Source: a virus
Reading direction: 5' to 3' (one strand)
DNA: 28,245 nt
UHGV virus genome: UHGV-0133447
Shown: positions 9,993-28,154 of the stretch, piece by piece
Layout of the letters: every line of letters begins with the position of its first letter
Position numbering within the stretch: position 1 is the first letter of the stretch
Notes under the pieces: generated by a model
Seen by the model: the letters and a program-made list of their open reading frames with translations, nothing else
What the model was told of the DNA's origin: nothing
Database searches by the model: none
Translations under genes and position numbers: made by a program

Positions 9993-10063
9993 ACAGATAA
10001 CTCTGGTGACGGTATCCAGCAAGAACTAATTGAAAGAGAAGAAGATTTTATCGATTTTATCCC

Positions 10064-10089: not shown

Positions 10090-10127
10090 TAATCAACGTT
10101 GAACATACAAAGCCCATCGTTATAAAT

Positions 10128-10156: not shown

Positions 10157-10172
10157 GTAACGTGTCGCTAAA

Positions 10173-11003: not shown

Positions 11004-11021
11004 GCTCAGTACTCCATACAC

Positions 11022-12077: not shown

Positions 12078-12085
12078 AATACCCC

Positions 12086-12610
12086 CTAAACAGTCAGATC
12101 TTTAAGCTTCTGCACGGCTTTTCCAACTTCAGCCATAGCATCTACGAACTCGTCAAACTTCCTGCTGGCCATTCCATATGCCTGGAGAATCTCCAACTTC
12201 AAGGGATCGAGCTGTTTCTTAATTTCTGCACGATCCCCGGCTTTTTTCTCCGCTTCCTCTGCCGCTTTGATCAAGGCGTCGGCCTGTTTACGTAATGCTT
12301 CCGGAGTTACTTCGAGCTGTTTATTCATTTTGCATTCCATCGTCGGCTGAGGAGGTCTCATTACAGGCGCCACAGATTTGTGACCATATTTAGGGTGGTG
12401 CAAGGTAGTAGACCTTCCATCATCTATCACGCAGAGCAGCCCGCTTTCCCGGATAATATCAATCAGAGTCTCTTTGTCTTTTCGATTGAGCCCGCTATAT
12501 GCCGCCACTTTGTGCGTCAGGTGGGTTAGCGTTGCGCCTTCTGGTTGCTTCTCTACAAAACGCTTTACCCTGGAGAGAACTGGTTGCAGGTGTGGAGGTG
12601 TCATTCTCAT
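12086..12610 (-). CDS. hypothetical protein with C-terminal coiled-coil
   Basis: ATG at 12608-12610 preceded by AAGGGG; the track start at 12616 is a GTG. No family recognised. Confidence 0.45.
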   Translation of the reverse strand: MRMTPPHLQPVLSRVKRFVEKQPEGATLTHLTHKVAAYSGLNRKDKETLIDIIRESGLLCVIDDGRSTTLHHPKYGHKSVAPVMRPPQPTMECKMNKQLEVTPEALRKQADALIKAAEEAEKKAGDRAEIKKQLDPLKLEILQAYGMASRKFDEFVDAMAEVGKAVQKLKDLTV

Positions 12611-12619
12611 GTTCACCCC

Positions 12620-13450: not shown

Positions 13451-13538
13451 AGCTTTCTCCATACATTTTTATGTGACGAAGGGCCTGCACGCCCGTTTCG
13501 TTTGCACCCTTTGAGATTACTGGCAAGTTGCATAGACT

Positions 13539-13937
13539 TCAACCTACCACTGAACAAACATCCAGCGTTTTTTTATACGCCGATATGGTGATTTCTACCC
13601 GCCCGCCTTTAACATTCTCACCCCACTCTATAGCCATGCGCTTTACCTGGTTGTCGTCCTCCCAGATACCGGCATAAGTCAAAGCATCAAGAAGTGCCTT
13701 GTTGTAATTGTCCAGGTCACGCCGGCGATAGTCTGGCGGATAGAGAATAATTTCTACAGCTGCTGGCGCGGTAGATGGTTTTGGTATTGCACGCAGTTGC
13801 TCAATGATCGCTGAACGTACTGCATGTTTGAATTTACGGCCGGCTGCGCTGACAAGGTGTTTACCTTTTGCGGGCCCCTTATTTGGGGACCGCCAGTAGG
13901 TGTTCACGCTGGGTGGGAATGGAAGAATAAATTTCAT
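13539..13937 (-). CDS. rusA: Holliday-junction resolvase RusA
   Basis: 132 aa. N-terminal MKFILPFPPSVNTYW plus acidic catalytic region typical of RusA. Start overlaps the upstream stop (ATGA). Confidence 0.9.
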   Translation of the reverse strand: MKFILPFPPSVNTYWRSPNKGPAKGKHLVSAAGRKFKHAVRSAIIEQLRAIPKPSTAPAAVEIILYPPDYRRRDLDNYNKALLDALTYAGIWEDDNQVKRMAIEWGENVKGGRVEITISAYKKTLDVCSVVG

Positions 13938-14410
13938 TCTGCCTCCAGCACTATTTTCAACTCAAACGGAACATCTCCTCCGCAATAGCAGAGCGGGCCA
14001 AGGTCAGACATGAGGCTCCACAGGGTCATTGACGTATAGCCATTTTCGTCTGTTATCGGGGGCGAAAAGTCTCCGAAGATCGCCGGGTGCTGGATTCGAT
14101 TCTCTTCGTGCTGGCTTCTCAAGTAACTTAGAGCTTCGGCAGTAAGTTTCACTTTTACGATGCTGTTGAGATTGACCGATATTTCTCTGGCCAACAGCGA
14201 AGAGGTGATACTGATACCGCGAGAAACCCCGCGGGTAATCTTGATGGCCCCTTTTCTCTCCAGCGCCTTGAGGTGCGTTGCTGCTGCATTGGGGGACCGG
14301 CACCCCAGCATGCCGGTCAGTTCGTAAGTTGTAGGCGGAAAACCATGTTTACGCTGATATTCGATCAGGAGGTCAAGGACCTCCTGCTGCCTTAAGGTCA
14401 AGGAAGTCAT
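13934..14410 (-). CDS. LexA-type N-terminal DNA-binding domain protein lacking the S24 peptidase domain
   Basis: From ATG 14410: MTSLTLRQQEVLDLLIEYQRKHGFPPTTYELTGMLGCRSPNAAATHLKALERKGAI closely follows the LexA DNA-binding-domain pattern. The ~90-aa C-terminal part has no Ser/Lys peptidase motifs. Start overlaps the C5-MTase stop (ATGA). Confidence 0.6.
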   Translation of the reverse strand: MTSLTLRQQEVLDLLIEYQRKHGFPPTTYELTGMLGCRSPNAAATHLKALERKGAIKITRGVSRGISITSSLLAREISVNLNSIVKVKLTAEALSYLRSQHEENRIQHPAIFGDFSPPITDENGYTSMTLWSLMSDLGPLCYCGGDVPFELKIVLEAE

Positions 14411-16389
14411 GCTGCCTGCTCCTCTCTGTTCACGCACATTTCGGGTAAGTTGGCGCGTACCAGCGCTTCGGCGAACGGCGGCGGGACGGCATTGCCACAG
14501 CGCGCGACCTGCTTATCTTTCGCGTATTTCACGCCGCGGTAATCCTGGTCAATGATGTACCACTCCGGAAAGCCCTGCGCCCGATAGAGCTCGTGCGGCT
14601 GCAGCATGCGCATGCCGATATCAACGATGCGGTAAGTCACTCCGCCGATTTCCACCAGCCCGGTGCATTCCTCTCCGCAGTATTCCTGCAGGAACGACAG
14701 CACCTGCTGCGCTCGCTCTTCGTCATAGTCCTCGACCGCCAGAGTCGTTTTAACCTCCCCTACATGCTGGCCACCGGCAGTGATAGTCGGCATCGGCTCG
14801 TCAGTTCGCTGGCCATCGCGGCAGGTTCCGCGCAGCTTAACCAGATGAGAAGCGACTAATGCATGGTGATCGACAGTCGTTACTGAATGCGCTGGCTCAT
14901 CCAGCCCCACGCCAGCGCCCTGATAATTCCCTCCGTAGTGTTTTGCCAGGAACGCACCAACTACAGCATGTTTCCCGCCACCAGCCACAACGGTGCCCAG
15001 CGGCTTATCCAGTCCTGGCACGCGAGGTGCCTGTCCTGGCCGTTCCCCGTATCCCATTTGAATGAGCGTCGGCACAACCAGCTGCGATTTACCTCCGCCG
15101 CCCGCGGTGATTGTTGCGCTAGGCTCATCCGCCCGGTGTCCGATGCTGGCGCCGAACTGCCGGGCGATAACCGGAGCGACGACACAGGCGCGCGATTCTT
15201 TCAGGATGGTGTGAGCGGGTTTATCGAGCGGGCGTGGTTTAGCCTGGTACTCGCTGCCGCCATTGCCAGCCAGGAACGGCGCCAGCTCTGCTTCAACAAT
15301 ACCCAGAGCGTGACCATTCCCGCCCGGGCGTTTTGCGGTACCGGCCGTCACCGTCGGCAACGGATCGGTGACTTCCTGCCCGGTAGCTCCAGTTCGGAAT
15401 TTTGTCAGATGAGGTACCGCAATTGCGTAGCCGTGGGTTTTCGTAATCGTCTGTAGCGGATCGTCCAGCGCCTGTCCCCGGAAACAGTCGTATTTGCCGC
15501 GTGTCGTTGTGTGATTGCACTTCACGATGAACGGCGAAGCGCTTTCGATAACAAAGCGCTGAATGCCGCGGGCAATCCGTTTTAGCGTATTCTCTGCCAG
15601 TGACTTTTTGCGACCGAAGATGCTCGGCGCGGGGATTGACCAGTCTATGCATTCCGCAGCTGTACGCCACGGCTCAAGCTGGCCCGCCAGCACGGCGGCA
15701 GACTTCGGATCCCCGTGCGTGGCTTCCGGCCAGACTATCAGTTTCCCGTCCCGGCGCATCACCATGAAGAACCGCTTACGGATGGTCGGCGCGCCATAAT
15801 CGCAGGCGCGCAGCTCGCGAAAATCGACGACATAACCCAGCCCGGCAATTAAGCGCTTGGCCTGCTCGCTATCCGGTGAAAACTCCAGAAACTCGCAACA
15901 CTCCACCAGTGCAGGATGATCTGCTGGAATACCGGTGGTAAGCATCCCGACAAATGCATTGAAAGTTTCACCGATGCGTGCCGGATCCGGTCGCATTTCT
16001 GCCGCGAGTAACGGACCCCACGTCTTAAACTCTTCGACGTTTTCCAGCATCATGACTCGCGGGCCAACATCCAGCGCCCAACGAATGACGATCCATGCCA
16101 GCCCTCGAATAGCTTTCTCTACTGGTTTAGCACCTTTCGCTTTAGAAAAGTGACGACAGTCAGGCGAGAACCATGCCAGGCCGACAGGCTTGCTACTGGT
16201 AGCGGCTAATGGGGATACATCAAACACACTTTCGCAATAGTGAAGCGTGTCGGGATGGTTAGTGCGGTGCATAGCAACGGCGTTAACATCGTGGTTAATA
16301 GCGATATCAACACTGCGCCCTATTGCCAGTTCAATACCTGTACTGGCTCCACCGCCGCCAGCGAAATTATCGACAATAATCTCACGCAT
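14407..16389 (-). CDS. DNA (cytosine-5)-methyltransferase with long repeat-containing variable region
   Basis: 660 aa. DNFAGGGG (motif I), SPDCRHFS (catalytic Cys), MMLENVEEF (ENV), C-terminal QGFP and GNAV motifs. The intervening ~250 aa carries about six related modules of the form P-x-x-T-I/V-T-A-G-G. GAGGGGG RBS. Confidence 0.8.
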   Translation of the reverse strand: MREIIVDNFAGGGGASTGIELAIGRSVDIAINHDVNAVAMHRTNHPDTLHYCESVFDVSPLAATSSKPVGLAWFSPDCRHFSKAKGAKPVEKAIRGLAWIVIRWALDVGPRVMMLENVEEFKTWGPLLAAEMRPDPARIGETFNAFVGMLTTGIPADHPALVECCEFLEFSPDSEQAKRLIAGLGYVVDFRELRACDYGAPTIRKRFFMVMRRDGKLIVWPEATHGDPKSAAVLAGQLEPWRTAAECIDWSIPAPSIFGRKKSLAENTLKRIARGIQRFVIESASPFIVKCNHTTTRGKYDCFRGQALDDPLQTITKTHGYAIAVPHLTKFRTGATGQEVTDPLPTVTAGTAKRPGGNGHALGIVEAELAPFLAGNGGSEYQAKPRPLDKPAHTILKESRACVVAPVIARQFGASIGHRADEPSATITAGGGGKSQLVVPTLIQMGYGERPGQAPRVPGLDKPLGTVVAGGGKHAVVGAFLAKHYGGNYQGAGVGLDEPAHSVTTVDHHALVASHLVKLRGTCRDGQRTDEPMPTITAGGQHVGEVKTTLAVEDYDEERAQQVLSFLQEYCGEECTGLVEIGGVTYRIVDIGMRMLQPHELYRAQGFPEWYIIDQDYRGVKYAKDKQVARCGNAVPPPFAEALVRANLPEMCVNREEQAA

Positions 16390-17335
16390 GAGCGGTCCCC
16401 CTCATGCTGCCGACCAGCCCACCAGCAACGGTGATGATTTCGCTGGTGGGCACGCGCTCCAGCCACAACTGGTTAATGTGGGCCTTCAGCTTGTTCTGCT
16501 GGGAGAACTCCAGATCCTCTGCGCCTTGTACCTGTCCAAAGACGAGTCCAACTTCCAGTGGCCAGATCCGGGATTCAGGCTCAGCCAATGATGCAACAGC
16601 ATCGGGGATGATCACTTCAGGAGACTGAACTGGCGAAACTGGTGACAGGAATTTTCCTGCAGCAAACTCAGCCAGCGCCATACTTGCGCGCCCTTTTGCT
16701 TCCAGCTCAACGCGATCGATATAGCTAAAATGTTCACCGCGCCAGGTCTTATCAAATACCGCAATGGCCCCGGCAAAGAATGCGCTGGTGGGCTTCTGCT
16801 TTTCGTCGGCCGGCACAAACCACGTTGGGAGATCGAATCCAATACGACCACGAATAAACATGATGTGATCGGCATATTCCGGCCACCATGTTTCACTTGT
16901 TGCTGACTTCACGAGGTAAATGTAACGACCACCCTTTTCACGCTGCTCGGCGGTATAGTTCATAATATGAGTCATGCCAGTGATGGCTTGTTTTTCATGG
17001 TACTGCGAACGGCTATACGGCGGATTAGCAAAGGCCGCTCCTCCGAGTTCTACCAAACGACCAGACCAGTCCTGCGTCAGCGCATTATCTTCAGCGGTAT
17101 ACCATGCCGGACATTTTGTATTGCTGTCGTCTGCAAACAGGTCCAGTACCAGCGGGCCAAACATAGCGTTAACGCCCCAGAACAGCAGATCAGGGGTACG
17201 CCATTGATCCCCGACTTCTTTTAAATAATGCGCACTACGCTGGCGCTGTTCCTCAAGTGCCAGGCAATAAGGGCTGACGGTTTTTGTTAAAGTTTGCTCT
17301 TCTGCGGTCATAGCTTCTTGTACTTCCTGACTCAT
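16382..17335 (-). CDS. phage Dam-like N6-adenine DNA methyltransferase with C-terminal extension
   Basis: 317 aa. WRTPD...FANPPYS motif characteristic of the phage N6-adenine methyltransferase family (memory). AGGGGA RBS. Confidence 0.8.
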   Translation of the reverse strand: MSQEVQEAMTAEEQTLTKTVSPYCLALEEQRQRSAHYLKEVGDQWRTPDLLFWGVNAMFGPLVLDLFADDSNTKCPAWYTAEDNALTQDWSGRLVELGGAAFANPPYSRSQYHEKQAITGMTHIMNYTAEQREKGGRYIYLVKSATSETWWPEYADHIMFIRGRIGFDLPTWFVPADEKQKPTSAFFAGAIAVFDKTWRGEHFSYIDRVELEAKGRASMALAEFAAGKFLSPVSPVQSPEVIIPDAVASLAEPESRIWPLEVGLVFGQVQGAEDLEFSQQNKLKAHINQLWLERVPTSEIITVAGGLVGSMRGTAHA

Positions 17336-17513
17336 AGTTTTCCCCTGCGCTGATCAGCATCAACAAGTGCTCTCAGTAACCAGTAACGGCGATCAAAGCT
17401 GAAAAGGTCATTTCTGAGGAGTGCATATTTTCTGCGAAAAATAACGTCGTGCTGCCACCAGTAACGCCAGTGATGCAAACGCATAAGGCGCCGGAGACTT
17501 ATCAAAATCTTCT

Positions 17514-17972
17514 TCAATCGGAGCACAAGTCACCTCCGCAGTAATTTCCGGCCAGATAGCATGACCCGGCGGAATCATTCATGTTTCTGGCGTTTCGAAC
17601 AGAAGCATTCTTAAGACGCAGGTATCGCTCTCTTGCTTTAGCCGTACAGTTGCTGTCACAAAGTTGCTGCCATACCGTCGCCGCACGGCGGTAATAGCGT
17701 TTCTCTTCCAGCTTTTTGGCTGTCGCTTCAAGGGCGAGAATCTCCCCCGAAAGCCCACCTGGCAGGTACTCTTCAATATCAATGGATCCCGCTACGAAGT
17801 AGATAAACCCACCAGTAACTTCAACGCTGGCAAGTTCCCCGTCGTAGTAAAGGCGATGAACAGCGCTCTTCACTGTTACCGGTTTGGTTTCAGGAAATGC
17901 CGCAGTGATATCGCGCAGCATTTTGCCTGGATTCTTCTCAATAAATTCAAAGATCGACTTGGCTATGTTCAT
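17514..17972 (-). CDS. hypothetical protein with PerC-like C-terminal motif
   Basis: KRYYRRAATVWQQL resembles the RRAA-x-RW signature of PerC-family activators (memory, uncertain). Start overlaps the replication-protein stop (ATGA). Confidence 0.4.
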   Translation of the reverse strand: MNIAKSIFEFIEKNPGKMLRDITAAFPETKPVTVKSAVHRLYYDGELASVEVTGGFIYFVAGSIDIEEYLPGGLSGEILALEATAKKLEEKRYYRRAATVWQQLCDSNCTAKARERYLRLKNASVRNARNMNDSAGSCYLAGNYCGGDLCSD

Positions 17973-18880
17973 CCCCGGAACCCCCGTGGAATCGTGGTTT
18001 GTACTGGACTAATTGAATTAACATCCCGCGGTCTGGTTTTGTCCCACGACTCCCTTGGCGGGCGGCCTTTAGCATCCCAGCGGATGGCGCTTTGCAGATA
18101 TCCCTCGAATTTTTTAGGGCCGAAAAGTGTCTCGGGTCGCATGTACTGGTATTGCTCGTCGTTGCCATGCCAGTGCTCATGCTTGACGTCGATTACCAGA
18201 TTCAAGTCGCTAACGGTATGACCTTCGCGGAGGCGGGCGCGAATGTTCTCCAGTGAGGTCTTAGATTTCTGGTAACGGGAACCGCTGACCAGATTCAGGT
18301 GTGCCAGAACTTCGATCGCGTTATCGGTAATAACAACTTCAGGATCCGGCTTATCGTCGGGTTCCGCAGGAGCCCGACAAGAAGGTTTTTTAGATGACGG
18401 ATCTAATGACGGATCTAATGACGGATCGCCTTCAACCATTGAGGGGTCCTCCCGCAATATTTGAGGGGGTACAGACCCATTATTTGAGGCATCAGAATTT
18501 GACCCCTCAAATTTTGAACCCTCAAATTCTGAGGCATCAAATTTTGATTGTTCACGTGGCGTTGCGTAGAAGATTTTTGCTTCAGCTGCTGCACGTTCAA
18601 GCATGTCCACATTGAGTTTATAAACGTTCGAATTATTCTTTCCACCCACGCGCCGTTCCTGCTTCTTCAGCCAGCCTTTAGCCTGAAGCTTTTTGATAGC
18701 GCTGCGGACAGTATTCTCGCTCTTGGCGCCGATCTGTCGCTGAATAGTGGTTACCGCTGGCCATGACACACCTTCGTCATTACTGAAATCTGCCAGGCGA
18801 GCCATGACCGCTATTTCTGAGATTATCAGCCCTTTGAAAGCGCATGCTTCCCATACGAGGCCGTGTAATTTACTGCTCAT
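17969..18880 (-). CDS. replication initiator / replisome organiser (lambda O-like) containing the origin iterons
   Basis: N-terminal winged-HTH-like domain, low-complexity linker (DPSLDPSLDPS), conserved-looking C-terminal domain. The linker-coding DNA carries tandem and inverted short repeats. GAGGG RBS. Confidence 0.65.
   Translation of the reverse strand: MSSKLHGLVWEACAFKGLIISEIAVMARLADFSNDEGVSWPAVTTIQRQIGAKSENTVRSAIKKLQAKGWLKKQERRVGGKNNSNVYKLNVDMLERAAAEAKIFYATPREQSKFDASEFEGSKFEGSNSDASNNGSVPPQILREDPSMVEGDPSLDPSLDPSSKKPSCRAPAEPDDKPDPEVVITDNAIEVLAHLNLVSGSRYQKSKTSLENIRARLREGHTVSDLNLVIDVKHEHWHGNDEQYQYMRPETLFGPKKFEGYLQSAIRWDAKGRPPRESWDKTRPRDVNSISPVQTTIPRGFRG
18393..18540. repeat. iteron cluster (candidate origin of replication) inside the replication gene
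   Basis: Tandem 12-mers atgacggatcta (18393-18430, about 2.5 copies). Multiple ATTTGAGGG-type repeats in both orientations, e.g. tttgaggggg 18460-18469, ccctcaaatt 18503-18512 and 18519-18528, tgaggcatca twice. Confidence 0.5.
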
Positions 18881-18889
18881 GGCTGCCCT

Positions 18890-19216
18890 CTACTTCCCTG
18901 AACTTGCGTTGAAACTGATCGAGTGGGCTAAAGCACTCGTGGGAATAGCCTTCCCGCAGGTAGATGACGCGACGTGTCTCAGGCTCCCAGCGGATAACTC
19001 TGACTGGATTGCCATAGTGGTCTTTGAACTTCCGGTTAACTTCTCGCATAACGCTTTTGCCCTCCGGTTAAAGACCCCCACAACTCCGCGTGCCCGACTG
19101 TGGTTACACTCGACCCATTTACCGCATACCATGCGCTCATACCGAAACGACGAAACGCCCGGGATCGGGTACATCCGTAGTTGCGGTAATTGAAGATTTA
19201 CGATTAAATTGCTCAT
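18890..19216 (-). CDS. hypothetical protein
   Basis: ATG at 19216 with GGAG RBS; the track start at 19237 is a GTG. Lies between the CII-like and replication genes. No family recognised. Confidence 0.35.
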   Translation of the reverse strand: MSNLIVNLQLPQLRMYPIPGVSSFRYERMVCGKWVECNHSRARGVVGVFNRRAKALCEKLTGSSKTTMAIQSELSAGSLRHVASSTCGKAIPTSALAHSISFNASSGK

Positions 19217-19221
19217 GCGGA

Positions 19222-19773
19222 TTATTTCTCCATACACAAAGATTTATTCGCCACGACGCCCGGAGCTGCACACTCGCGGGCGTCACTCTTTTCTGGCTGA
19301 CAAAAGACACGGAACAGTAACGTTAAATGTTCCTGCCATTTCGCCATCACCTGATAGCTGTTCTCCTCAATTTGCTCGCGTTCTGCCTGGTCAATTACCC
19401 CATCAGCTGTAGCTTTACGCAGGTACTGCGAGTGTTTTCCTATCCACTCAATGGACTCCATAAGACGCTGGTTAATATCTGCGTTGTCCACGTCTTCAAT
19501 ATCTGCCAACGGAACAAAAACGCCGTTCGAGTGACGCGCTATAGCATTGGCAATATGATTTGACCCACCAGCACGCTGCAGCACCATTGCCCAGCCGAGA
19601 GGGAAAATCTGATCACCATCGGCACGTAAACGGTTAAACAATGCGTTTTCAGTAACGCCCAGCCACTCCGCAGCTTCCACGTAACCACCGTCCAGTTCGG
19701 TGATAGTCTTTTTAATCGCGGCCACCAGCCACGCCGGTTGCTTCTCTACTTTCCATTCAGGTTCTATACCCAC
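19222..19773 (-). CDS. CII-like / YdaT-like early regulatory protein
   Basis: GTG start with strong AGGAGG RBS. Segment ITELDGGYVEAAEWLGVTENALFNRLRADGDQIFPLGWAMVLQ matches the CP76/CII-like HTH pattern (memory). Position immediately after cro. Confidence 0.5.
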   Translation of the reverse strand: MGIEPEWKVEKQPAWLVAAIKKTITELDGGYVEAAEWLGVTENALFNRLRADGDQIFPLGWAMVLQRAGGSNHIANAIARHSNGVFVPLADIEDVDNADINQRLMESIEWIGKHSQYLRKATADGVIDQAEREQIEENSYQVMAKWQEHLTLLFRVFCQPEKSDARECAAPGVVANKSLCMEK

Positions 19774-19817
19774 GGCTTACCTCCTACTTCTGTGGTTAAC
19801 GCTGCTAAAACCAAATG

Positions 19818-20018
19818 TTATTGTTTGGAATAGATATCTGGTCGGAGATCAAACTTGGTGATCGCACCGGATGTGCTTTTTTCCAGTTTTTTTGCCAGAT
19901 CAAATCCAGCTTTTTTGTAGCCGTTAAAAACTAAACGCAGATAACCGGGTGTAGAGCCAACGTTTGCAGCTAAATTGCTCTGTTGCTCTTTAGTTAATGA
20001 ATCCCAGAACTCTTTCAT
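19818..20018 (-). CDS. cro: Cro-like repressor
   Basis: 66 aa from the ATG at 20018, preceded by AGGAGG. Divergent from cI across an operator-rich spacer. Small HTH-like protein. Confidence 0.7.
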   Translation of the reverse strand: MKEFWDSLTKEQQSNLAANVGSTPGYLRLVFNGYKKAGFDLAKKLEKSTSGAITKFDLRPDIYSKQ

Positions 20019-20029
20019 ATATGTACCTC

Positions 20030-20105
20030 CTGTGTACATATTACACGAAAGAAATGAACCTTCAAGGTACTTGTACCTTGAAGGTACACACGGTTTAATT
20101 TCAAT
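20030..20105. promoter_or_regulatory. divergent cI/cro promoter-operator region
   Basis: Palindromic operators gtaccttgaaggtac (20074-20088) and accttcaaggtac (20058-20070). Minus-strand TTGAAG-16-TAATAT promoter candidate toward cro. Plus-strand TTTAAT -10 candidate immediately before the cI ATG. Confidence 0.5.
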
Positions 20106-20780
20106 ATGAAAACAATCCAGGAAATCAGGCGGTTAAACGCCAGAAAATTGCGTGATGGTGTTGGCGGTAATATTTACTTCGCCAATATGATTGATCGCGA
20201 GCCTACTCAAACCAGCCGGTTCATGGGAGATGGCGCCACTAAAAACATCGGCGATGCAATGGCAAGGCACATTGAAAAGTGTTTTGACTTACCTACTGGG
20301 TGGTTAGATCAGGAACATCAAACCACTAATGTTGCTAAAACGCCCGATGTCTCTGATACAAATAGAAATATCACCATGGTTCCGGTTATATCCTGGGTAC
20401 AAGCAGGAGCATGGACCGAAGTTGGCTATGCTGAGGTTGATTTGAATAGCACTGAAAACTATCCATGCCCTGTGCCTTGTGGGCCGATGACTTATATTCT
20501 TCGTGTTATTGGCGACTCAATGATCGACGAATATAGGCCCGGTGATATGATTTTTGTTGATCCCGAAGTTCCAGCAGTGCATGGAGATGATGTGATCGCC
20601 TTAATGCACGCTTCTGGTGAGACTACATTTAAACGGTTGATTGAAGATGCAGGACAACGCTATCTAAAAGCACTTAACTCAAATTGGCCAGAACCTTACA
20701 TCAAAATCAATGGTAATTGCTCTATCATTGGCACCGTAATTTTTTCCGGTAAACCAAGACGATACCGAACGAAAACATAA
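20106..20780 (+). CDS. cI: CI-like phage repressor (HTH plus S24 LexA-type peptidase domain)
   Basis: 224 aa. C-terminal VIGDSMIDEYRPGDMIFVD...FKRL carries the Ser/Lys S24 signature. N-terminal HTH region. Divergent from cro. Confidence 0.9.
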   Translation: MKTIQEIRRLNARKLRDGVGGNIYFANMIDREPTQTSRFMGDGATKNIGDAMARHIEKCFDLPTGWLDQEHQTTNVAKTPDVSDTNRNITMVPVISWVQAGAWTEVGYAEVDLNSTENYPCPVPCGPMTYILRVIGDSMIDEYRPGDMIFVDPEVPAVHGDDVIALMHASGETTFKRLIEDAGQRYLKALNSNWPEPYIKINGNCSIIGTVIFSGKPRRYRTKT

Positions 20781-20794
20781 CAAAGACTATTAAA

Positions 20795-20815
20795 CCTGCT
20801 TCGGCGGGTTTTTTT
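20795..20815 (+). terminator. intrinsic terminator after cI
   Basis: cctgc-ttcg-gcggg (5-bp stem with one G-U pair, UUCG loop) followed by seven T. Confidence 0.55.
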
Positions 20816-20819
20816 ACAC

Positions 20820-20848
20820 TTGACAATGTACCTCAACGGTACATAATG
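20820..20848 (+). promoter_or_regulatory. strong sigma70-like promoter with embedded operator (PL analogue driving the early-left operon)
   Basis: TTGACA (20820-20825), 16/17-nt spacer, CATAAT/ATAATG (20842-20848). The spacer contains gtacctcaacggtac, the same GTACC-N5-GGTAC operator type as in the cI/cro region. Confidence 0.55.
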
Positions 20849-20953
20849 TACCTAAAAGAAACAGCGAACAGGCAGGACGCCCACGAAGTAGCCGCCCGGG
20901 GCATATGAAGTCCGGGATGATTCGCTGACAGATAAACCAAATAGGAACAGATC

Positions 20954-21187
20954 ATGGCAAGCAAAGGCATTGAAAACCTTATCAAGGACGCATTGGCAAA
21001 CGGCTGTCATGTAGTCCGTAAAGCGCATCGCTTCGAGGTAAGCAAGAAAGGCCAAAAATCAATCACTCTTATTATTTGTGAAGATGGCACAGCTTACCGG
21101 GGAGATATTGACCTAACGATCGCCATAGCCATTCGCACTCAAAAAGAAATGCGCAGAATCCTCGGCCTGCCAGCCAAGGCAAGTTAA
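20954..21187 (+). CDS. hypothetical early protein (77 aa)
   Basis: First ORF after the PL-like promoter; AGGA about 8 nt upstream. No family recognised. Confidence 0.45.
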   Translation: MASKGIENLIKDALANGCHVVRKAHRFEVSKKGQKSITLIICEDGTAYRGDIDLTIAIAIRTQKEMRRILGLPAKAS

Positions 21188-21900
21188 TTACCACAGGTGT
21201 CTTCGGGAGGGGTTGCGGAGCTGGATTGACCACCAGCAACAGAAACTCACCCGACATACAGCAGCCGTTTAGCCCACGGCGTCGGGGGTCCAGTAGACCT
21301 GGATTAATACTGTAGGGGTTGTGCCGGTTGGTCGCCGGCGCCCCGCCCGAAGATTCCTGATCGAACATGGCGAAAGCCGACAGCGTTGAAGGCGATTTTC
21401 TCGGTTTGCGCGCTAAACAATAGCGGGGGTGAAATCGGGGCGGAGAAGCAGAATCCGCGATGTCGGGACTTGATACTTCCGGCCAGACCAACAAGCCGAA
21501 TGATCGCGTAACGGTCCTTTGCATCTGCCCCGGCGAGGTGGCGCCGCCGGACCGGGGCAGATGAATCGTACACAACATGAAAGCGCATTCCATCTTCATC
21601 CGTCGTGGGGACTGGTTTGTAACTGAAGGAGTGCGCTTCCAGTTGTGAACGGCAATATTCACGACCGTTGTATGGCACATGCAGCGTTAGCAGCCCGGAT
21701 GGTTCCCTTGAAGTTCCATGCGCTATCCGGACAACTGGAATGTGCAAGCCAAGTGTTTCAGGCACGACGTGCGCCCCACCAGCGCGGCGAAAAGGTGTGA
21801 CCCCCGGGAAGAGTCCGGGACACAACAGGAAAGAGTACTGAAGATGCCAGGAAACGCCCTACCGCCAGGCAGATAGACGGGTTATCCCGCAAGGGGTGGC

Positions 21901-22043
21901 GGCAGTGCTCTTACCGTTGTGGTGTAGCTCAAATGGATAGAGCGCCCCTTATGTGGGGAGTTGAGCACTAACCAATGTTCGCAACACAGGTTATCTCATG
22001 CGGCCGGCCGGACGTTATGCGGGTTCAAATCCCGTCACCACAG
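21901..22043 (+). ncRNA. candidate tRNA-like structured element, copy B1
   Basis: Leader ggcagtgctcttaccgttgtggt. TGTGGTG (21918-21924) pairs with CACCACA (22036-22042). D-arm-like GCTC-AAATGGATA-GAGC. T-arm-like GCGGG-TTCAAAT-CCCGT (22019-22035). About 60 extra nt between the anticodon-like region and the T-arm. No encoded CCA. Confidence 0.3.
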
Positions 22044-22080
22044 CGCACAACGATGAGGGCATTGACGAGCAAGGCACAGA

Positions 22081-22099
22081 GTCTGGTTCGATTCCAGAC
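22081..22099 (+). other. tRNA T-arm-like hairpin (loop TTCGATT)
   Basis: gtctgg-ttcgatt-ccagac, a 6-bp stem with a loop identical to the tRNA-Thr T-loop at 8506-8581. Confidence 0.4.
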
Positions 22100-22138
22100 G
22101 CCAGGATAGCTCTATATCTGGTGATGGGCAGGGAAAAG

Positions 22139-22155
22139 GTCCGTTCGATTCGGAC
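22139..22155 (+). other. tRNA T-arm-like hairpin (loop TTCGATT)
   Basis: gtccg-ttcgatt-cggac, a 5-bp stem with the same loop sequence. Confidence 0.4.
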
Positions 22156-22158
22156 ACC

Positions 22159-22290
22159 GGCAGTGCTCTCTTCGTTGTGGTAATTGCGGCTATGCGCACG
22201 TGACGAGCCAACCCGTTCATGGAATGCGTTTCCGGGCAGTGTACGTCGCCGGTTATGGCTTAACCCGGCAGGTGGAGGCACCACCGCCAC
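22159..22290 (+). ncRNA. candidate structured element, copy B2
   Basis: Leader ggcagtgctctcttcgttgtggt matches the 21901 leader at 20 of 23 positions. gttgtgg (22173-22179) can pair with ccacaac (22284-22290). Internal cgtcgccgg motif. Confidence 0.25.
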
Positions 22291-22529
22291 AACCTAGTTA
22301 ACTGTGCTGTGTGTAGTCTTGGCGGTTATCCAGTTTTCCACTATCCAAAGGAGGAAGAGGATAACGTTCTGATGGATAACCGCCCTTTTTACACAATACA
22401 AAAGAGCATCACCGGGCGACGGGCTCATTACCCAATCCACCCGGGCGGCGTCCTAACCGCAGGTGCTCTTCTGTGTTGTGTACGGAGAAATTCCCGGCGG
22501 TGGCAGCCGCCTTTCGAGAGGGTAAAACC

Positions 22530-22901
22530 ATGAGTAATGATCGCATGACAGTAGTGCCCGATTTCCTGGGTGAACTGGACGCCGGCGTATTCATGAACAA
22601 GATTGCGGCGGCTCTTAATACCACCGCGCTCGGCGTTCTGAACAACGGCAACAAAGGCAAGGTTGTCCTCACCTTTGATTTTGAGCGTATGGGCAACTCT
22701 GTTGAAGAGAAGCGCGTCAAGATTAAGCACAAGCTGAACTACAGCACCCCAACTCCCCGCGGCAAAGCGTCGGAGGAGGACACCACCGAAACACCAATGT
22801 GGGTTAACAAAGGTGGCAAGCTCACAATCCTGCAGGAGGATCAGGGGCAACTCTTCGGTATCACCGGCGCGGTGGACGGAAAGCTTAAAGCGGCTCAGTG
22901 A
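22530..22901 (+). CDS. conserved phage early-region protein (possibly YfdP-like)
   Basis: 123 aa from ATG 22530 (GAGAGGG upstream); the track ORF starts earlier at 22473. Precedes the DUF2303-like and HD-domain genes, as in the CPS-53 yfdPQR block (memory, uncertain). Confidence 0.5.
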   Translation: MSNDRMTVVPDFLGELDAGVFMNKIAAALNTTALGVLNNGNKGKVVLTFDFERMGNSVEEKRVKIKHKLNYSTPTPRGKASEEDTTETPMWVNKGGKLTILQEDQGQLFGITGAVDGKLKAAQ

Positions 22902-22957
22902 ACCGCACGTACAAATTCACTGATACCACTTCGCTAATCAGTTAATAAGGAATTTTT

Positions 22958-23785
22958 ATGTCTCAGTTAGACAGCGGTACTTTTCAGCAGGTTAAAGATC
23001 TGGTGCTTTCCGGTTATCACCTGAACGATATCCCCGGCCTGGCCTGTCCGACCGCCCTGCTACCGCAGAATACCAGCATTGAAAGCCTGGAGCGTTTTGC
23101 TCTTGAGCGTTTCCGTTTCCGCGGTGCAATGGACACGACTAGCATTGATGATTTCGTTCGCTATTCTGTCGCTTATGCCCTGGAAGAAGAAAAAGCACGT
23201 TGCTTTATTGATGCCGATAACATGCTGGCTCGTTCTATCTTCAACATCGGTACGCTGGATAATCCCGGCCACGCTGATAACGTCGCCTCGATCAAGCTAA
23301 AGAAAACAGCGCCCTTCCGCGCGTTACTGGCGATCAACGGCGATCACCTTAATCAGAAGCAAATCGCCGAATGGCTTGAAGACTGGAGCGACTATCTCAC
23401 TGCGTTCGATGCTGACGGTAACACGATGAAAATCGCCCAGGCCGCTCAGGCAGTTCGCCGCGTCACCATCCAGCAAACTAATGCCTCCGACCATGAAGAT
23501 GGTGATTTCAGTGGCAAAAAATCGCTGATGCAGAGTATTGAAGCCAGCAGTAAAGAGGTTATGCCGGTAGCGTTTGAGTTTAAGTGTGTACCCTATGAAG
23601 GCTTGGGCGAACGTCGTTTCAGTCTGCGCAACAGTCTGCTGAAAAGTAATGACCCGGTATTCGTCCTGCGTATCGTCCAGTTGGAAGCCCAGGAAGAAGC
23701 GATCGCCAATGAGTTCCGTGATCTGCTGGTTGGCAAGTTCGCCGGCAAGCCGGTAGAAACCTTTATCGGCAACTTCAAGGCCTGA
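22958..23785 (+). CDS. DUF2303-like protein (YfdQ-like)
   Basis: 275 aa with AAGGA RBS. Size and position relative to the HD-domain gene match YfdQ-type prophage proteins (memory). Hairpin aaatccccg/cggggattt follows at 23797-23822. Confidence 0.55.
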   Translation: MSQLDSGTFQQVKDLVLSGYHLNDIPGLACPTALLPQNTSIESLERFALERFRFRGAMDTTSIDDFVRYSVAYALEEEKARCFIDADNMLARSIFNIGTLDNPGHADNVASIKLKKTAPFRALLAINGDHLNQKQIAEWLEDWSDYLTAFDADGNTMKIAQAAQAVRRVTIQQTNASDHEDGDFSGKKSLMQSIEASSKEVMPVAFEFKCVPYEGLGERRFSLRNSLLKSNDPVFVLRIVQLEAQEEAIANEFRDLLVGKFAGKPVETFIGNFKA

Positions 23786-23917
23786 TTGCTCTCCATTAAA
23801 TCCCCGTCGTTGCGGGGATTTATTAAAGCGTAATCCTGCAATTAATCGCCACCTGGCGAGGGATTCCTACACCCAAAAATCAGCGCTGTGCAGAGCGCAA
23901 TTAAATGGAGAAATACG

Positions 23918-24445
23918 ATGAGCTTTATTCAAACGTTCACAGGCAAGCACTTTAACTATCTCGATATCCAGCTGGATGCCATTGAGATCGAAGATATCGC
24001 TAACGCACTCTCGAATATTTGCCGCTTTGCTGGCCATCTTCCGGAGTTCTACAGCGTCGGTCAGCACAGCGTGTTAACCAGTCACCTGGTACCACAGGAG
24101 TTTGCACTTGAAGCACTGCTGCACGATGCCGCAGAGGCTTATTTGCAGGATATTCCAGCACCGCTTAAACGCCTGCTCCCGGACTACCGCGCCATTGAGG
24201 ATCGGGTTGATGCTGCTATCCGTCAAAAATTTGGCCTGCCATCTGAGCAGCACCCGACCGTGAAGTATGCCGACCTTGTGATGCTGGCCAGCGAACGTCG
24301 CGACTTTGAAATCGACGACGGCACCCACTGGCCGATGCTCGAAGGCATTATTCCTACCGACCAATTTGTGATTAATCCCGTCCGACCTGGTCAGTCTTAC
24401 GGCATGTTTATGAACCGCTTTAACCAACTGATGGAGCGGCGCTAA
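23918..24445 (+). CDS. HD-domain phosphohydrolase (YfdR-like 5'-deoxynucleotidase)
   Basis: About 175 aa from ATG 23918 (GGAG 7 nt upstream). H...HD motif LLHDAAEAY and downstream Asp residues typical of HD-domain hydrolases. Confidence 0.7.
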   Translation: MSFIQTFTGKHFNYLDIQLDAIEIEDIANALSNICRFAGHLPEFYSVGQHSVLTSHLVPQEFALEALLHDAAEAYLQDIPAPLKRLLPDYRAIEDRVDAAIRQKFGLPSEQHPTVKYADLVMLASERRDFEIDDGTHWPMLEGIIPTDQFVINPVRPGQSYGMFMNRFNQLMERR

Positions 24446-24645
24446 TGGCACATGTGAAAGTGAAAGAATTGGTTGCTGCAGCATACGCTGCAGCACCTGA
24501 CCTACCACCAGCAGCAGCACAATTAATGCAAGACATAGCGTCAAGGCTGGATGTGACCTTTGTCGCCCTTACAGAGGCAATGGACCAGAACACCGCTATG
24601 GCCGCGATGATAGCGAACCTGAGCGAGGAAAACAGAAATGGCTAA
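24445..24645 (+). CDS. hypothetical small protein (66 aa)
   Basis: Start overlaps the upstream stop (TAATG) and its own end overlaps the ParB-like start by 8 nt, so it is translationally coupled on both sides. Confidence 0.45.
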   Translation: MAHVKVKELVAAAYAAAPDLPPAAAQLMQDIASRLDVTFVALTEAMDQNTAMAAMIANLSEENRNG

Positions 24646-25426
24646 AAACTCGATCGATGCTTATGGCGCCAGCGGCAAGACAAACGTTCTGATGTTCGAG
24701 CCGAAAAATCTGCATATTGTCACTGACAAGGCTCACCCGCTTTACGATGAGCGTATTCACTTACCTCTCAGTGAGGCAATGGTGCTGAACATCATGGATC
24801 AAGGTGTTCTGGAGCCGATTATTGTGTGGAAAGACCCGGAAACGGGGCTGTCCTGTGTGGTCGATGGCCGTCAGCGTGTCCGCCATACCCTGGAAGCTAA
24901 CAGGCGTCTGGCAAAAGAGGGAAAAACCCCACTGCTGGTTCCGGCTGTCACTAAACGCGGTTCTGCTGTTCGTATGGCGCAGGCAATGGTCAGCGCAAAC
25001 GAAATCCGCCAGGCCGATACACCGCTGGGCCGAGCCAAAAAGATGGCTGATGCACTGGAGCGCGGGCATGACGAGGAAGACCTCGCGCTGATGTTCGGCG
25101 TCAGCGTCCCCACTGTACGCGCTACGCTATCCCTTCTGGATGCCACTCAGGCAGTCAAAGACGCGGTAGAGTCCGGCACAGTAACAGTTACCCAGGCACG
25201 TCAACTGGCATCACTAAAACCCGAAGAACAGCGGGAAAAGGTAGCCGAAATCGAAGCGGCGACCGCTGGCACTACTGGTCATGAAAAAGCGCGTCGTCAG
25301 CGCCAGGTTCTCGGCGATAAGAAACCGCGCCTTAAAACTCGCAAAGAAATCACTAAAGCCCTCGAAGCTGCCAGCGGTGAATACGCTGATGCTCTCCGCT
25401 GGGTACTTGGGGAGGTAACATTATGA
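24638..25426 (+). CDS. ParB-like nuclease-domain protein with HTH
   Basis: 262 aa. N-terminal LEPIIVWKDPETGLSCVVDGRQRV matches the ParB/Srx GxxR core. Central EEDLALMFGVSVPTVRATLSLL is HTH-like. GAGGAA RBS. Confidence 0.7.
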   Translation: MAKNSIDAYGASGKTNVLMFEPKNLHIVTDKAHPLYDERIHLPLSEAMVLNIMDQGVLEPIIVWKDPETGLSCVVDGRQRVRHTLEANRRLAKEGKTPLLVPAVTKRGSAVRMAQAMVSANEIRQADTPLGRAKKMADALERGHDEEDLALMFGVSVPTVRATLSLLDATQAVKDAVESGTVTVTQARQLASLKPEEQREKVAEIEAATAGTTGHEKARRQRQVLGDKKPRLKTRKEITKALEAASGEYADALRWVLGEVTL

Positions 25427-26499
25427 GTAAAGTAGGAGATCATTTCTTTGAGTTTCCTGCATCACGTGGAACTCAGGGCGTTTCAATCGTCCTGATGCTG
25501 AGTGTTCCTGCACGGACCCTTACGCGAGTTCTCGCCAGCGATAATTACGGGGACACTCTTGAACGCTCGCAGCGAGAACTGAACCCAGCCAGGGCGAAAA
25601 AGTTTTATCAGTATCTTGTTGAAGCATACGAAAACAAAGAGCCATTTATCATTCCACCGCTGGTAGGTAACTGCGATTCGTATGTTGAATTCGAAGAGTT
25701 CGGAAACACTAATGTCGGGGTGGCCCGATTCCCAATGGATGCAGAGATTAAATTGTTTGATGGTCAGCATCGCGCAGCAGGTATTGCGGAATATTGTCGC
25801 ACCATTGATGAACCGATCCATGTCCCGATGATGCTTACTCTCCAGTTGCCACTGAAAACGCGGCAGCAGTTTTTCTCGGACATTAACAACAATGTTTCGA
25901 AGCCATCTGCGGCAATCAACATGGCCTATAACGGGCGCGATAAGAACGCGCAGGTGATGGTCAGCTTTATCAGTTCACACGACGTCTTTTCTGAAGTCAC
26001 CGATTTTGAGCATAACGTCGTTCCCGCGAAAAACGATAAGTGGGTGAGCTTCAAGGCCCTTAGTGATGCCACAGCAAAATTTTCAGGTTCCTGCTCGCAG
26101 GATGATCTTGAAGGATTATGGAATGCGTGGCTTATGCTGACAGGTTTAGATGATATTCGCCGCGGTACGAATCAAGCCGAATATAAACGCGAGTATATCC
26201 AGTTCCATGCCGTGATGATTAATGCCTTCGGTTACGCAGTGCAGCGGCTAAGCGAAGGCCGGGGAGTTCGTGGGGTCACGCTGATGATTGAGGATCTGGT
26301 AATGAATACCGGCATTGCCGATCGTGAAGATTTCTTTCTTATTTCATCATGGGTCGGAATTTGCGCCAGCTGTGAGAAAGCTAGGCCAACGGTCATTGCG
26401 AATGTATCCGCTCAAAAGGCTGCAGCATCACGCCTGATGGATGCCATCGTGAATAAAAGCTTGTCTGTTAGTCGCGGTAAGGAGGCCAGCCATGACTGA
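25423..26499 (+). CDS. DGQHR-domain protein (DndB-like)
   Basis: 358 aa with the literal motif LFDGQHRAAGIAE. Size similar to DndB-family proteins. Start overlaps the ParB-like stop by 4 nt. Confidence 0.7.
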   Translation: MSKVGDHFFEFPASRGTQGVSIVLMLSVPARTLTRVLASDNYGDTLERSQRELNPARAKKFYQYLVEAYENKEPFIIPPLVGNCDSYVEFEEFGNTNVGVARFPMDAEIKLFDGQHRAAGIAEYCRTIDEPIHVPMMLTLQLPLKTRQQFFSDINNNVSKPSAAINMAYNGRDKNAQVMVSFISSHDVFSEVTDFEHNVVPAKNDKWVSFKALSDATAKFSGSCSQDDLEGLWNAWLMLTGLDDIRRGTNQAEYKREYIQFHAVMINAFGYAVQRLSEGRGVRGVTLMIEDLVMNTGIADREDFFLISSWVGICASCEKARPTVIANVSAQKAAASRLMDAIVNKSLSVSRGKEASHD

Positions 26500-27073
26500 G
26501 GCTGAATTAGCGCTTGAACGAGCAAAAAAGCTGGCGTTCTTAATGACAGAGCGTTTCAGTATGAACCCCATTAGCGCCAAACTGCTTAATGAAGCATGGC
26601 GTCTTGCATTCCCTGACGAAGTTGCAGTGGCCAGGCGCATGAGGGCGCTGGTAGAGGCGCTGGAGAAGGCGCAGACCAAAAACGCACTCGTTGCCGGCGG
26701 CATTGAGGCTACAGCAAAGCTACATGAGCGCATCGCCGAGCTGGAAGAAGCAGAGCAAAAACTCTGTGCCGCTAACGTGACGCTTGATGCTCGCGCGGAA
26801 TTGGCTGAGCGCCGGTTGGCAGAGATGGAGTCCCGTACCGTCACCATTGAGCCATTCCGCTCGTTTGTCACTGATGCCGACTTAGCAGCGCTCCACCGCT
26901 TCGCCGAATGCTGTGATGACCCTGAATCTGGCGGTCACGATTTGGAACAAGAGCAGGTAAGGCGGCTTGAGGCAATCGGAGCATTGCAGCGTTCGGGGCG
27001 AATTAGCTACATCACGAGCTTTGGTGATGTCCTGATTTCGATTACCGCTGGCATCAAGTGGGAGGCTAAGTGA
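26492..27073 (+). CDS. hypothetical coiled-coil protein
   Basis: 193 aa. Start overlaps the DGQHR stop by 8 nt. Ala/Glu/Leu-rich heptad-like central region. Confidence 0.45.
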   Translation: MTEAELALERAKKLAFLMTERFSMNPISAKLLNEAWRLAFPDEVAVARRMRALVEALEKAQTKNALVAGGIEATAKLHERIAELEEAEQKLCAANVTLDARAELAERRLAEMESRTVTIEPFRSFVTDADLAALHRFAECCDDPESGGHDLEQEQVRRLEAIGALQRSGRISYITSFGDVLISITAGIKWEAK

Positions 27074-27249
27074 TGGCAGAACGCTGGAAAATTTATCTCA
27101 CTATCGCATTCATCGCCCTTGGCGCTACACCGATAAGCATGGTAGCTGCAAAGATTTATGTACCCTCATGGGCGCTTATTTGCGGGCACTGTGGCGCGAT
27201 AATAGCCGGATTTATTTGTGCAGAATTAGGAAGGGGAGCCGACCAATGA
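27073..27249 (+). CDS. small hydrophobic protein (58 aa)
   Basis: ATG overlaps the upstream stop (TGATG) and its stop overlaps the next ATG (ATGA). Two hydrophobic segments and a CGHCG motif. Below the ORF-track size cutoff, translated by hand. Confidence 0.35.
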   Translation: MAERWKIYLTIAFIALGATPISMVAAKIYVPSWALICGHCGAIIAGFICAELGRGADQ

Positions 27250-28154
27250 CCAGCAAAATATCCATAACCGACGAGCGACTTGCATCAATCCAGGCGACAA
27301 CAGTCGGGGTAAAACAGCGCGGGGCAATGCCGCGTGGTTTTTCAAAGTATCTTGTTGAAAACCTGGCCGCAATACTGGCAGAGCTACAGGAACGTCGCAA
27401 TGCCGCAAAAGGTCTTGACCTGGCGGGCTGGCAATTCAAATCAGTAAACGGTGACTGGTTGGGCCTAATTGACGAACACGGAAAGAATCAGGCCTTTCGT
27501 GAGGGTTGCGAAGTTCGCGAGGTTTTCGCTATGGCCGATGGCGTCAATGAACGCGACCAGGTACGCCGCGAGCACGCCGAGTGGTCACAGGCTACATTCG
27601 GCAATGTTGGTCCGGTTGGCCCATTGAAGCACCTGAGCAAAGAAGCGCTGGAAGCTGCTGCCGAGCCTGGCGACCTGTCGGAGTTTGCTGATATGCAGTT
27701 CCTGCTTTGGGACGCCCAGCGCCGGGCTGGTATCACTGATGATCAGATTACCCAGGCGATGATCGAGAAACTGGCGGTGAACAAACAGCGCGAATGGCCT
27801 GAGCCGAAAGACGGTGAGCCACGGTTGCACATTAAAGATCAGCCATCGGCGGTAGGGCCAGTAACAGACGCTATGGCTTACGCATTCCATCATGCGCTAA
27901 CCGATGGTCCCCTGGGTGATGACGATGTGGAGGATATTAAGATCGGATTGAGAGCAGCTTTCGCTAATGTAACCACCTATCAGCCATTACCAGTAGTGCT
28001 GAAAGAGCATCAAATCCGCGAACTAGTCAATAAACTGCGTGATATAGCTATTGAATATCACGGTACACAACAATTGCGTGAGCATATTGCTTGTGTTGTC
28101 CGCGCCGCTATGATCGCGGTCGCACAACCAGCGCCAAAAAGCGAAGTGAATTAG
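27246..28154 (+). CDS. DUF550-like (MazG-type dATP/dGTP pyrophosphohydrolase domain) protein
   Basis: About 302 aa from ATG 27246; the track ORF starts upstream at 27168. Central HAEWSQATFGN...LSKEALEAAAEPGDLSEFADMQFLLWDAQRRAGI has MazG-like acidic spacing (memory). Confidence 0.5.
   Translation: MTSKISITDERLASIQATTVGVKQRGAMPRGFSKYLVENLAAILAELQERRNAAKGLDLAGWQFKSVNGDWLGLIDEHGKNQAFREGCEVREVFAMADGVNERDQVRREHAEWSQATFGNVGPVGPLKHLSKEALEAAAEPGDLSEFADMQFLLWDAQRRAGITDDQITQAMIEKLAVNKQREWPEPKDGEPRLHIKDQPSAVGPVTDAMAYAFHHALTDGPLGDDDVEDIKIGLRAAFANVTTYQPLPVVLKEHQIRELVNKLRDIAIEYHGTQQLREHIACVVRAAMIAVAQPAPKSEVN

Follow-up and report, generated by a model that had tools for sequence, protein, structure and literature searches.

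The yfdPQR cassette and the DUF550 gene

The sequence analysed here (the window) is the whole 28,245-nucleotide stretch of UHGV virus genome UHGV-0133447, a lambdoid Klebsiella prophage for which Klebsiella phage Kp4866-6 matches approximately 81% of bases 1-20000 at 96% identity. Its subject is a pair of predicted nucleotide enzymes, namely a YfdR-like HD-domain phosphohydrolase (23918-24445, plus strand) and a MazG-like DUF550 domain within a protein encoded at 27246-28154 on the same strand. YfdR and DUF550/Eaa are both named accessory families that are widespread among lambdoid phages, and copies such as these are to be expected in a Klebsiella prophage. The interval 22530-24445 is a standard yfdP-yfdQ-yfdR cassette, as in ST64B/SfV/CPS-53-type lambdoid early-left operons, carried here by a Klebsiella prophage. 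It holds three genes, the first two of which had gone unmentioned in an earlier interpretation of this DNA made without database searches (the sequence-only reading); the DUF550 gene sits 2.8 kb beyond it.

The terminase and lysis genes, the Q antiterminator, and the replication and nin-type genes all lie on the minus strand, as does a cro-like open reading frame (ORF; 19818-20039) that faces an S24 LexA/cI-type repressor gene (20106-20780, plus strand). A stem-loop with a U-run, the cI terminator, lies 3' of the repressor gene (approximately 20790-20815), and is followed by a PL-type early-left promoter (TTGACA-16-CATAAT; 20820-20847, plus strand) that matched the consensus at 11 of 12 positions in a promoter scan and is overlapped or flanked by operator-like ATGTACC..GGTACAT repeats (repeat D2). 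From PL to the end of the window genes are found on the plus strand only, and in L011, the closest relative that is complete, a 69-residue ORF comes after the DUF550 gene and then the integrase gene, at which the operon ends. Together, the repressor, the promoter, the single gene strand and the integrase end of the operon in L011 confirm the label 'early-left operon' that the sequence-only reading had applied. No plus-strand terminator-like site was seen downstream of PL in the region scanned (to 24700), and stop and start codons overlap at every junction from the HD gene through to the DUF550 gene. The yfdPQR and DUF550 genes form one operon, read from the single PL promoter.

The cassette shares its gene order and orientation with yfdP-yfdQ-yfdR(-yfdS-yfdT) of E. 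coli K-12 prophage CPS-53 (KpLE1), with full-length identities of 59, 57 and 66%, respectively, and in both prophages the cluster is where the protein-coding portion of the early-left operon begins. The two loci differ downstream, where K-12 carries YfdS (DUF551) and YfdT but the window carries a 66-residue ORF, ParB-like and DGQHR/DndB-like genes, two small ORFs and the DUF550 gene. The K-12 copy is also a cryptic remnant that lacks the upstream RNA element U4 described below. The 123-residue product of the yfdP-like gene (22530-22901, plus strand; phrog_204, E 1e-41) had no match in Pfam or PDB searches. The 275-residue product of the yfdQ-like gene (22958-23785, plus strand) belongs to DUF2303 (PF10065, E 1.8e-64) and matched a solved YfdQ/DUF2303 relative, PDB entry 9O7M ('YfdQ Protein'), at E 5e-40. 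This entry contains 36 chains of one sequence, which suggests that YfdQ relatives form a large homo-oligomeric assembly; a literature search turned up no paper describing it. The AlphaFold2 (AF2) model of the YfdQ-like protein reached a predicted local distance difference test (pLDDT) score of only 36.6, because all retrievable homologs were at least 87% identical, and no fold was assigned from it.

The HD ORF spans 23888-24445, with GGAG preceding the ATG at 23918 and no ribosome-binding site at the upstream GTG (23888). The 175-residue protein matched phrog_318 (E 7.8e-98) and aligned with K-12 YfdR across 175 of 175 residues, so that it belongs to the YfdR family by full-length similarity as well as by gene position, with the yfdP- and yfdQ-like genes immediately upstream. 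Its metal and catalytic residues, H50 (24065-24067), H69-D70 (24122-24127), E73, D78 and D119 (24272-24274), were invariant or near-invariant in family alignments of 20 and 37 members, and the H..HD..D site is identical to that of K-12 YfdR. These residues and a helical AF2 model (pLDDT 88.4) place the protein in the HD-domain metal-dependent phosphohydrolase superfamily. The one strong PDB match by both sequence (E 2.7e-11 with the single sequence, 6.8e-19 with a profile) and structure was Atu1052 of Agrobacterium tumefaciens (PDB 2GZ4), a chromosomal protein of approximately 25% identity whose metal ligands, in QH, HDxxE and AD motifs, align with those of the HD protein, and on which the model superposed with a template modelling (TM) score of 0.78-0.81. 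It was the sole strong structural match in Foldseek searches, HDDC2 and YfbR matching weakly (TM approximately 0.4). Atu1052 offers no mechanistic information for the HD protein.

YfbR (PDB 2PAQ/2PAR; PF12917) has the HD fold and an HDxxE..D..P.P core in common with the HD protein, the central segment of which aligns with HDASE...GDLPTP of YfbR, but the N-terminal substrate-binding segment of YfbR (INRWPL) was without a counterpart in the MAFFT alignment. The cut-offs for YfbR-like 5'-deoxynucleotidases were not reached (20.7 versus 25.9 bits for PF12917, and 17.2 versus 122 for NF003009), with both alignments covering the HD-motif segment only, and BLASTP detected no similarity to T5 Dmp (best E 3.1). 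Because it falls below the YfbR-type cut-offs and is unlike T5 Dmp, the protein is assigned, on its sequence relationships, to the YfdR/Atu1052 branch of HD enzymes, and its family membership does not identify it as a 5'-deoxynucleotidase. A DatZ- or YfbR-like identity was ruled out by the family scores and the fold search. T5 Dmp is likewise an early-expressed phage gene, and its activity is that named in the PHROG label of the HD gene ('deoxyribonucleoside 5' monophosphate phosphatase'), but homology to it was dropped given the absence of BLASTP similarity. The same results bear on whether the HD protein, like other branches of the HD superfamily, might have substrates that are not mononucleotides, such as (p)ppGpp, cyclic oligonucleotides or nucleic-acid ends. 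The sub-threshold PF12917 and NF003009 scores, the lack of an assigned function for its closest structural relative and the missing INRWPL segment would all be compatible with such a substrate. However, YfbR shares both the HDxxE...D core and the DxPxP segment that comes after it, K-12 YfdR carries the RefSeq name 5'-deoxynucleotidase and nucleotidase activity has been reported for it, leaving this the least probable of the explanations weighed here.

The DUF550 gene starts at ATG 27246, which has a strong AGGAAGGGGAG ribosome-binding site and a 4-nucleotide overlap with the upstream stop codon, and encodes a 302-residue Eaa-type protein consisting of an N-terminal region, a central DUF550 domain and a variable C-terminal region. 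The domain, an all-alpha, MazG-like dATP-dGTP pyrophosphohydrolase domain, occupies residues 107-200 (27564-27845, plus strand). Its Pfam family, PF04447, was once named DUF550 and is now 'dATP/dGTP pyrophosphohydrolase'; the profile matched over the whole domain (positions 2-95 of 97) at 138.9 bits, above the gathering cut-off of 23 (E 6.6e-41). A full catalytic set is present (E133, E136, E146, D149, K175, N179, R182 and W184). In a phmmer alignment with MazZ of cyanophage S-2L (7ODY; roles from PMC8342488), which shares this Pfam family and fold class with the window domain, as does the DUF550 enzyme of Acinetobacter phage SH-Ab 15497, residues E133, E136, E146 and D149 correspond to the metal ligands E35, E38, E50 and D53, R182 to R83, and K175, N179 and W184 to K76, N80 and W85. 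The domain thereby has both the ExxE...ExxD ligands and the transition-state arginine of a MazZ-type enzyme, and differs in having K132 at the position of MazZ E34, the one ligand described as non-conserved (PMC8342488).

Across 151 DUF550 domains, comprising the window domain and 150 representatives of clusters built at 50% identity, the catalytic residues were invariant, N179 being present in 150. The domain was 82-95% identical among the representatives, but its flanks ranged from 3 to 215 residues on the N-terminal side and from 0 to 249 on the C-terminal side. This combination of a conserved domain with variable flanks points to an enzyme cassette that is portable and under strong purifying selection, and DUF550 is a near-invariant enzyme cassette within heavily shuffled Eaa/Ea22-type proteins. 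The identical 302-residue protein (P0121) was found on 21 contigs, and relatives are named 'Eaa1' or 'DUF550 domain-containing protein' in databases, with some records showing a fusion to DUF551. Both enzyme assignments of the sequence-only reading, a YfdR-like HD hydrolase and a MazG-type domain, each at the coordinates it had given, were upheld by these family matches, and the active-site alignment that it had named as able to refute them revealed no loss of residues in either protein.

Independent occurrence of the two enzymes

Neighbouring genes were identified by tblastn in 80 viral contigs with a gene for a YfdR-like protein. The 66-residue downstream ORF accompanied the YfdR-like gene in 62 loci, YfdQ in 49, YfdP in 47, a ParB-like gene in 20, DUF550 in 7 and a DndB-like gene in 3, and a DUF550 profile search returned the identical 7 loci. 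At least 3.7 kb of downstream sequence was present in 53 of the 80 loci, and these 53 include the 7 with DUF550. The HD and DUF550 genes are independently shuffled accessory modules, with no linked two-enzyme system. What these sequences show directly is which families the two proteins belong to, that their active sites are intact, where in the operon the genes lie and that they are not linked. The neighbour seen most consistently beside the HD gene is the 66-residue ORF (24445-24645, plus strand; phrog_12248, E 7.7e-32), which was always directly downstream where present; its start overlaps the stop codon of the HD gene (TAATG).

In a reading that extends the sequence-only one, the HD and DUF550 proteins would instead act jointly and early, converting deoxynucleoside triphosphates (dNTPs) to monophosphates (dNMPs) and these to nucleosides, and so reshape deoxynucleotide pools or destroy nucleotide immune signals in order to overcome host defences. 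The intact active sites of both proteins, their placement within one translationally coupled PL operon and chemistries that could act in series are all in keeping with this, and there are precedents: DatZ, an HD enzyme, cooperates with MazZ/DUF550 in Z-genome phages, and the T5 Dmp 5'-deoxynucleotidase blocks Kongming by draining dAMP (bioRxiv 10.1101/2024.12.20.629578). The activity of DUF550 enzymes on dATP and dGTP might extend to dITP, the Kongming signal. Nevertheless, joint action appears unlikely given that the two genes co-occur in just 7 of the 80 loci and that neither precedent extends to the window. The Dmp genes travel with phage dNMP kinases, and T5 Dmp has a Mg2+-coordinating catalytic residue, D22, which is conserved in phosphatases and was mutated in that study (bioRxiv 10.1101/2024.12.20.629578). 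The HD protein is unrelated to T5 Dmp and falls short of the PF12917 cut-off, and in the window ORFs covered by a Pfam scan no dNMP kinase domain was seen, so that neither the similarity nor the kinase co-occurrence of a T5 Dmp-type anti-Kongming gene is seen here. Further, the ortholog YfdR is a weak nucleotidase, with nucleotide affinities far lower than those of YfbR (PMC4776307), and deletion of yfdR gave no better cytidine monophosphate (CMP) yield in an engineered strain.

The DatZ/MazZ/PurZ pathway of Z-genome phages was ruled out on gene content. No PurZ (adenylosuccinate-synthetase-like) gene was present among the window ORFs scanned, and in L011 the integrase gene follows DUF550, leaving no room for one before xis-int. 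To our knowledge, a prophage replicating passively in the chromosome cannot carry Z-DNA. The enzymes of Z clusters have a PurZ/DatZ partner, whereas the window is from a temperate lambdoid phage in which the domain lies inside a 302-residue mosaic Eaa-type protein; MazZ (PMC8342488) and the SH-Ab 15497 DUF550 enzyme (PMC12884076) both feed PurZ.

A role in counter-defence can also be considered for DUF550, the HD enzyme or both, through destruction of a nucleotide-derived immune signal or its precursor (for example dITP or dAMP in Kongming-type systems) or through pre-empting dNTP-depletion defences. If this held, host immunity would be the selective force behind the very strong conservation of DUF550 within shuffled Eaa proteins, but such a role is judged very unlikely here. 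In PADLOC-DB there was no match for YfdP, YfdQ, the HD protein, the 66-residue ORF or DUF550, the DGQHR protein alone matching (as DndB). The HD/DUF550 pair is neither a two-enzyme pathway nor a demonstrated counter-defence system.

The wider theme proposed in the sequence-only reading, in which the two enzymes work together with three methyltransferases early in infection, was not supported. All three methyltransferase genes are real, namely an N6_N4_Mtase (8572-9621), a C5 methylase (14407-16389) and a Dam-type methyltransferase (16382-17335), but none of them is in the early-left operon, all being minus-strand genes of the early-right and late operons, and DUF550 is as rarely found beside YfdR as stated above.

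Between the 66-residue ORF and the DUF550 gene, on the plus strand, lie a ParB-like gene (24638-25426; HTH_ParB, phrog_1033), a DGQHR/DndB-like gene (25423-26499; TIGR03187, E 5e-57; PADLOC DndB, E 1e-34), a 193-residue ORF (26492-27073) and a 59-residue ORF (27070-27249). The ParB-like and DGQHR/DndB-like genes are translationally coupled, a pairing that is rare beside YfdR, and no dnd/dpd modification genes were seen near the latter.

Predicted roles in restraining host DNA synthesis

The reading somewhat favoured here is that the YfdR-type and DUF550 cassettes are separate and that each plausibly restrains host DNA synthesis. The substrates, the binding to DnaA and the physiological role put forward in this section would hold by analogy with orthologs. 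Transcription from PL would deliver YfdP, YfdQ and YfdR early after infection or induction, with Eaa/DUF550 following later on the same transcript. Orthology with K-12 YfdR makes two properties of the HD protein most likely, a 5'-(deoxy)nucleotidase activity of low affinity and binding to domain I of host DnaA, and together with YfdQ and the small downstream partner it would damp the initiation of host replication after infection or induction. The DUF550 domain, from the behaviour of its relatives, most likely hydrolyses the purine dNTPs dGTP and dATP to dNMP and pyrophosphate. Restraint would then plausibly be exerted through the initiator by the HD protein and through precursors by DUF550, as separate modules.

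Several published observations are consistent with this proposal. In the experiments of Noguchi and Katayama, yfdQ-yfdR in multicopy, combined with yfdS or yfdT, suppressed over-initiation and had an inhibitory effect on initiation, and purified E. coli YfdR bound DnaA domain I, with Phe46 being important (PMC4776307). Conversion of dATP and dGTP to dNMP has been reported for the DUF550 enzyme of Acinetobacter phage SH-Ab 15497 (PMC12884076), and S-2L MazZ is specific for (d)GTP (PMC8342488). The expectation of the sequence-only reading that both proteins degrade deoxynucleotides stands insofar as both belong to nucleotide-phosphohydrolase superfamilies with relatives that act on such substrates, and the activity of the window proteins themselves is predicted from those relatives. 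A 2025 survey found the three-gene yfd cluster to be common in lambdoid early-left operons and not confined to phages without a recombination module, such that it is unlikely to be such a module itself (PMC12315714).

Other observations weigh against a restraint of host DNA synthesis by these genes. Deletion of yfdQRST was without phenotype, and the effect on DnaA required overexpression (PMC4776307). The 66-residue ORF of the window is unrelated to YfdS or YfdT, the third component in K-12. The strict conservation of the catalytic residues of the HD protein suggests that its enzymatic activity, beyond DnaA binding alone, is under selection. Lastly, the sequence match between the window DUF550 domain and MazZ is weak (E 0.02), and as the DUF550 enzymes of known substrate come from Z-genome phages and are distant, the substrate specificity of the window domain may differ from theirs.

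One or both enzymes could alternatively have a house-cleaning function, clearing the precursor pool for phage DNA synthesis of nucleotides that are damaged or non-canonical, dUTP, dITP and 8-oxo-dGTP among them; this is what MazG-like enzymes and some HD enzymes classically do. The fold class of DUF550, that of the all-alpha nucleoside triphosphate pyrophosphohydrolases (MazG/HisE/dimeric dUTPase), and its very strong conservation would fit a function of this kind, and sensitivity to methyl methanesulfonate (MMS) and H2O2 has been reported for K-12 yfdQ and yfdS mutants (PMC4776307). However, canonical dGTP and dATP are the preferred substrates of those DUF550 and MazZ enzymes that have been characterised, and accessory, often absent cassettes are a poor fit to a core need for replication fidelity, making house-cleaning improbable.

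No result obtained here speaks specifically for coordinated pool manipulation or counter-defence, for house-cleaning or for non-nucleotide substrates. A near-invariant DUF550 domain is kept by thousands of prophages. Should either enzyme prove to act on immune-signal nucleotides or on the host dNTP supply, a very common temperate-phage function would be added.

Structured RNAs between PL and yfdP, and in the late region

The unannotated structured-RNA array that separates PL from yfdP is the more unusual feature of the window and a more promising lead than the enzymes. This interval (approximately 1.6 kb, 20857-22490, plus strand, approximately 55% G+C) is a mosaic of structured-RNA modules, the borders of which coincide with recombination breakpoints among related phages, and it contains only one plausible ORF (77 residues, 20954-21187). 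It opens with a 65-nucleotide leader RNA (20860-20925, plus strand), present in 55 of the 80 loci, that has a covarying hairpin. Identity of this leader as an HK022 put homolog was considered and dropped, as it is unlike HK022 putL and has no second copy on the PR side.

Four further units follow on the plus strand, U1 (approximately 21567-21649), U2 (approximately 21820-21923), U3 (approximately 22046-22181) and U4 (approximately 22389-22484), each closed by a similar bulged stem of approximately 22 bp (ACACAAC..GAAAGAGCAC / GUGCUCUU..GUUGUGU) and with folding z-scores ranging from -2.7 to -5.8. The motif of the 3' arm of the closing stem occurs 5 times, against 0.08 occurrences expected by chance. 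U4 immediately precedes the first ORF in 69 of the 80 loci, and 8 of its 33 pairs have compensatory changes. A covariance model of U4 recovered U1 weakly (15 bits) and U2 and U3 not convincingly, so the relatedness of the four units rests on the closing-stem sequence that they share. U3-like copies were present in 80 of 5,426 complete E. coli genomes, all of them unannotated. In Salmonella phage 118970_sal3 (L001), a U4 copy at 7015-7115 scored 77 bits with model R1, and an annotated 177-residue YfdP-like 'hypothetical protein' (6995-7528) begins upstream of it; as the start codon precedes the conserved RNA, the N-terminal extension of this protein is probably an annotation artefact over structured RNA.

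Between U2 and U3 lies a tRNA-like RNA (21918-22043, plus strand) that matched the Rfam tRNA family at 40 bits (E 1.7e-06). Besides a 7-bp acceptor stem, a D arm and a T arm, it has two further hairpins, one extra and one resembling a variable arm, and an anticodon-like arm that is elongated and ends in a 7-nucleotide loop, reading WUCAUAA in most copies and UUCGCAA in the window. ARAGORN missed it at standard settings and, in intron mode, reported a 'tRNA-Glu with a 44-nt intron'. Compensatory changes were found in 16 of its 36 pairs among 22 prophage sequences, and the RNA is possibly a tRNA mimic or decoy. A scan of genome contigs for its core motif gave 66 matches, nearly all in unrelated phyla and with gap lengths unlike those of the prophage element; these were on both grounds read as chance matches, with that in Raoultella alone looking genuine. 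As a working guess, the closing stems of the long-stem units may be RNase III-type processing sites that free small tRNA-like RNAs from the untranslated PL leader.

Rfam searches of 20700-22600 at E values up to 1 gave, besides the tRNA match, only a weak rsmX match at the cI terminator (E 0.95; 19 bits versus a gathering score of 56). Identification of the upstream units with known prophage small RNAs (sRNAs; AgvB, AsxR, Pas and STnc) was dropped, since there was no Rfam match and Pas sRNAs lie in the late region.

A fifth long-stem unit of the U1-U4 family lies outside the early-left operon, at 8377-8443 on the minus strand, just downstream of a genuine tRNA-Thr(UGU) gene (8506-8581, minus strand), and long-stem units are therefore linked to tRNA genes. 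A T-arm-like hairpin is likewise found downstream of tRNA-Thr, within approximately 500 nucleotides of apparently non-coding late-region sequence (7990-8505, minus strand). The late region also contains, next to the holin and lysis genes, a match to the Rfam family STnc100 (6494-6691, minus strand, 100.7 bits), a known prophage sRNA that has recently been tied to the PasD sRNAs.

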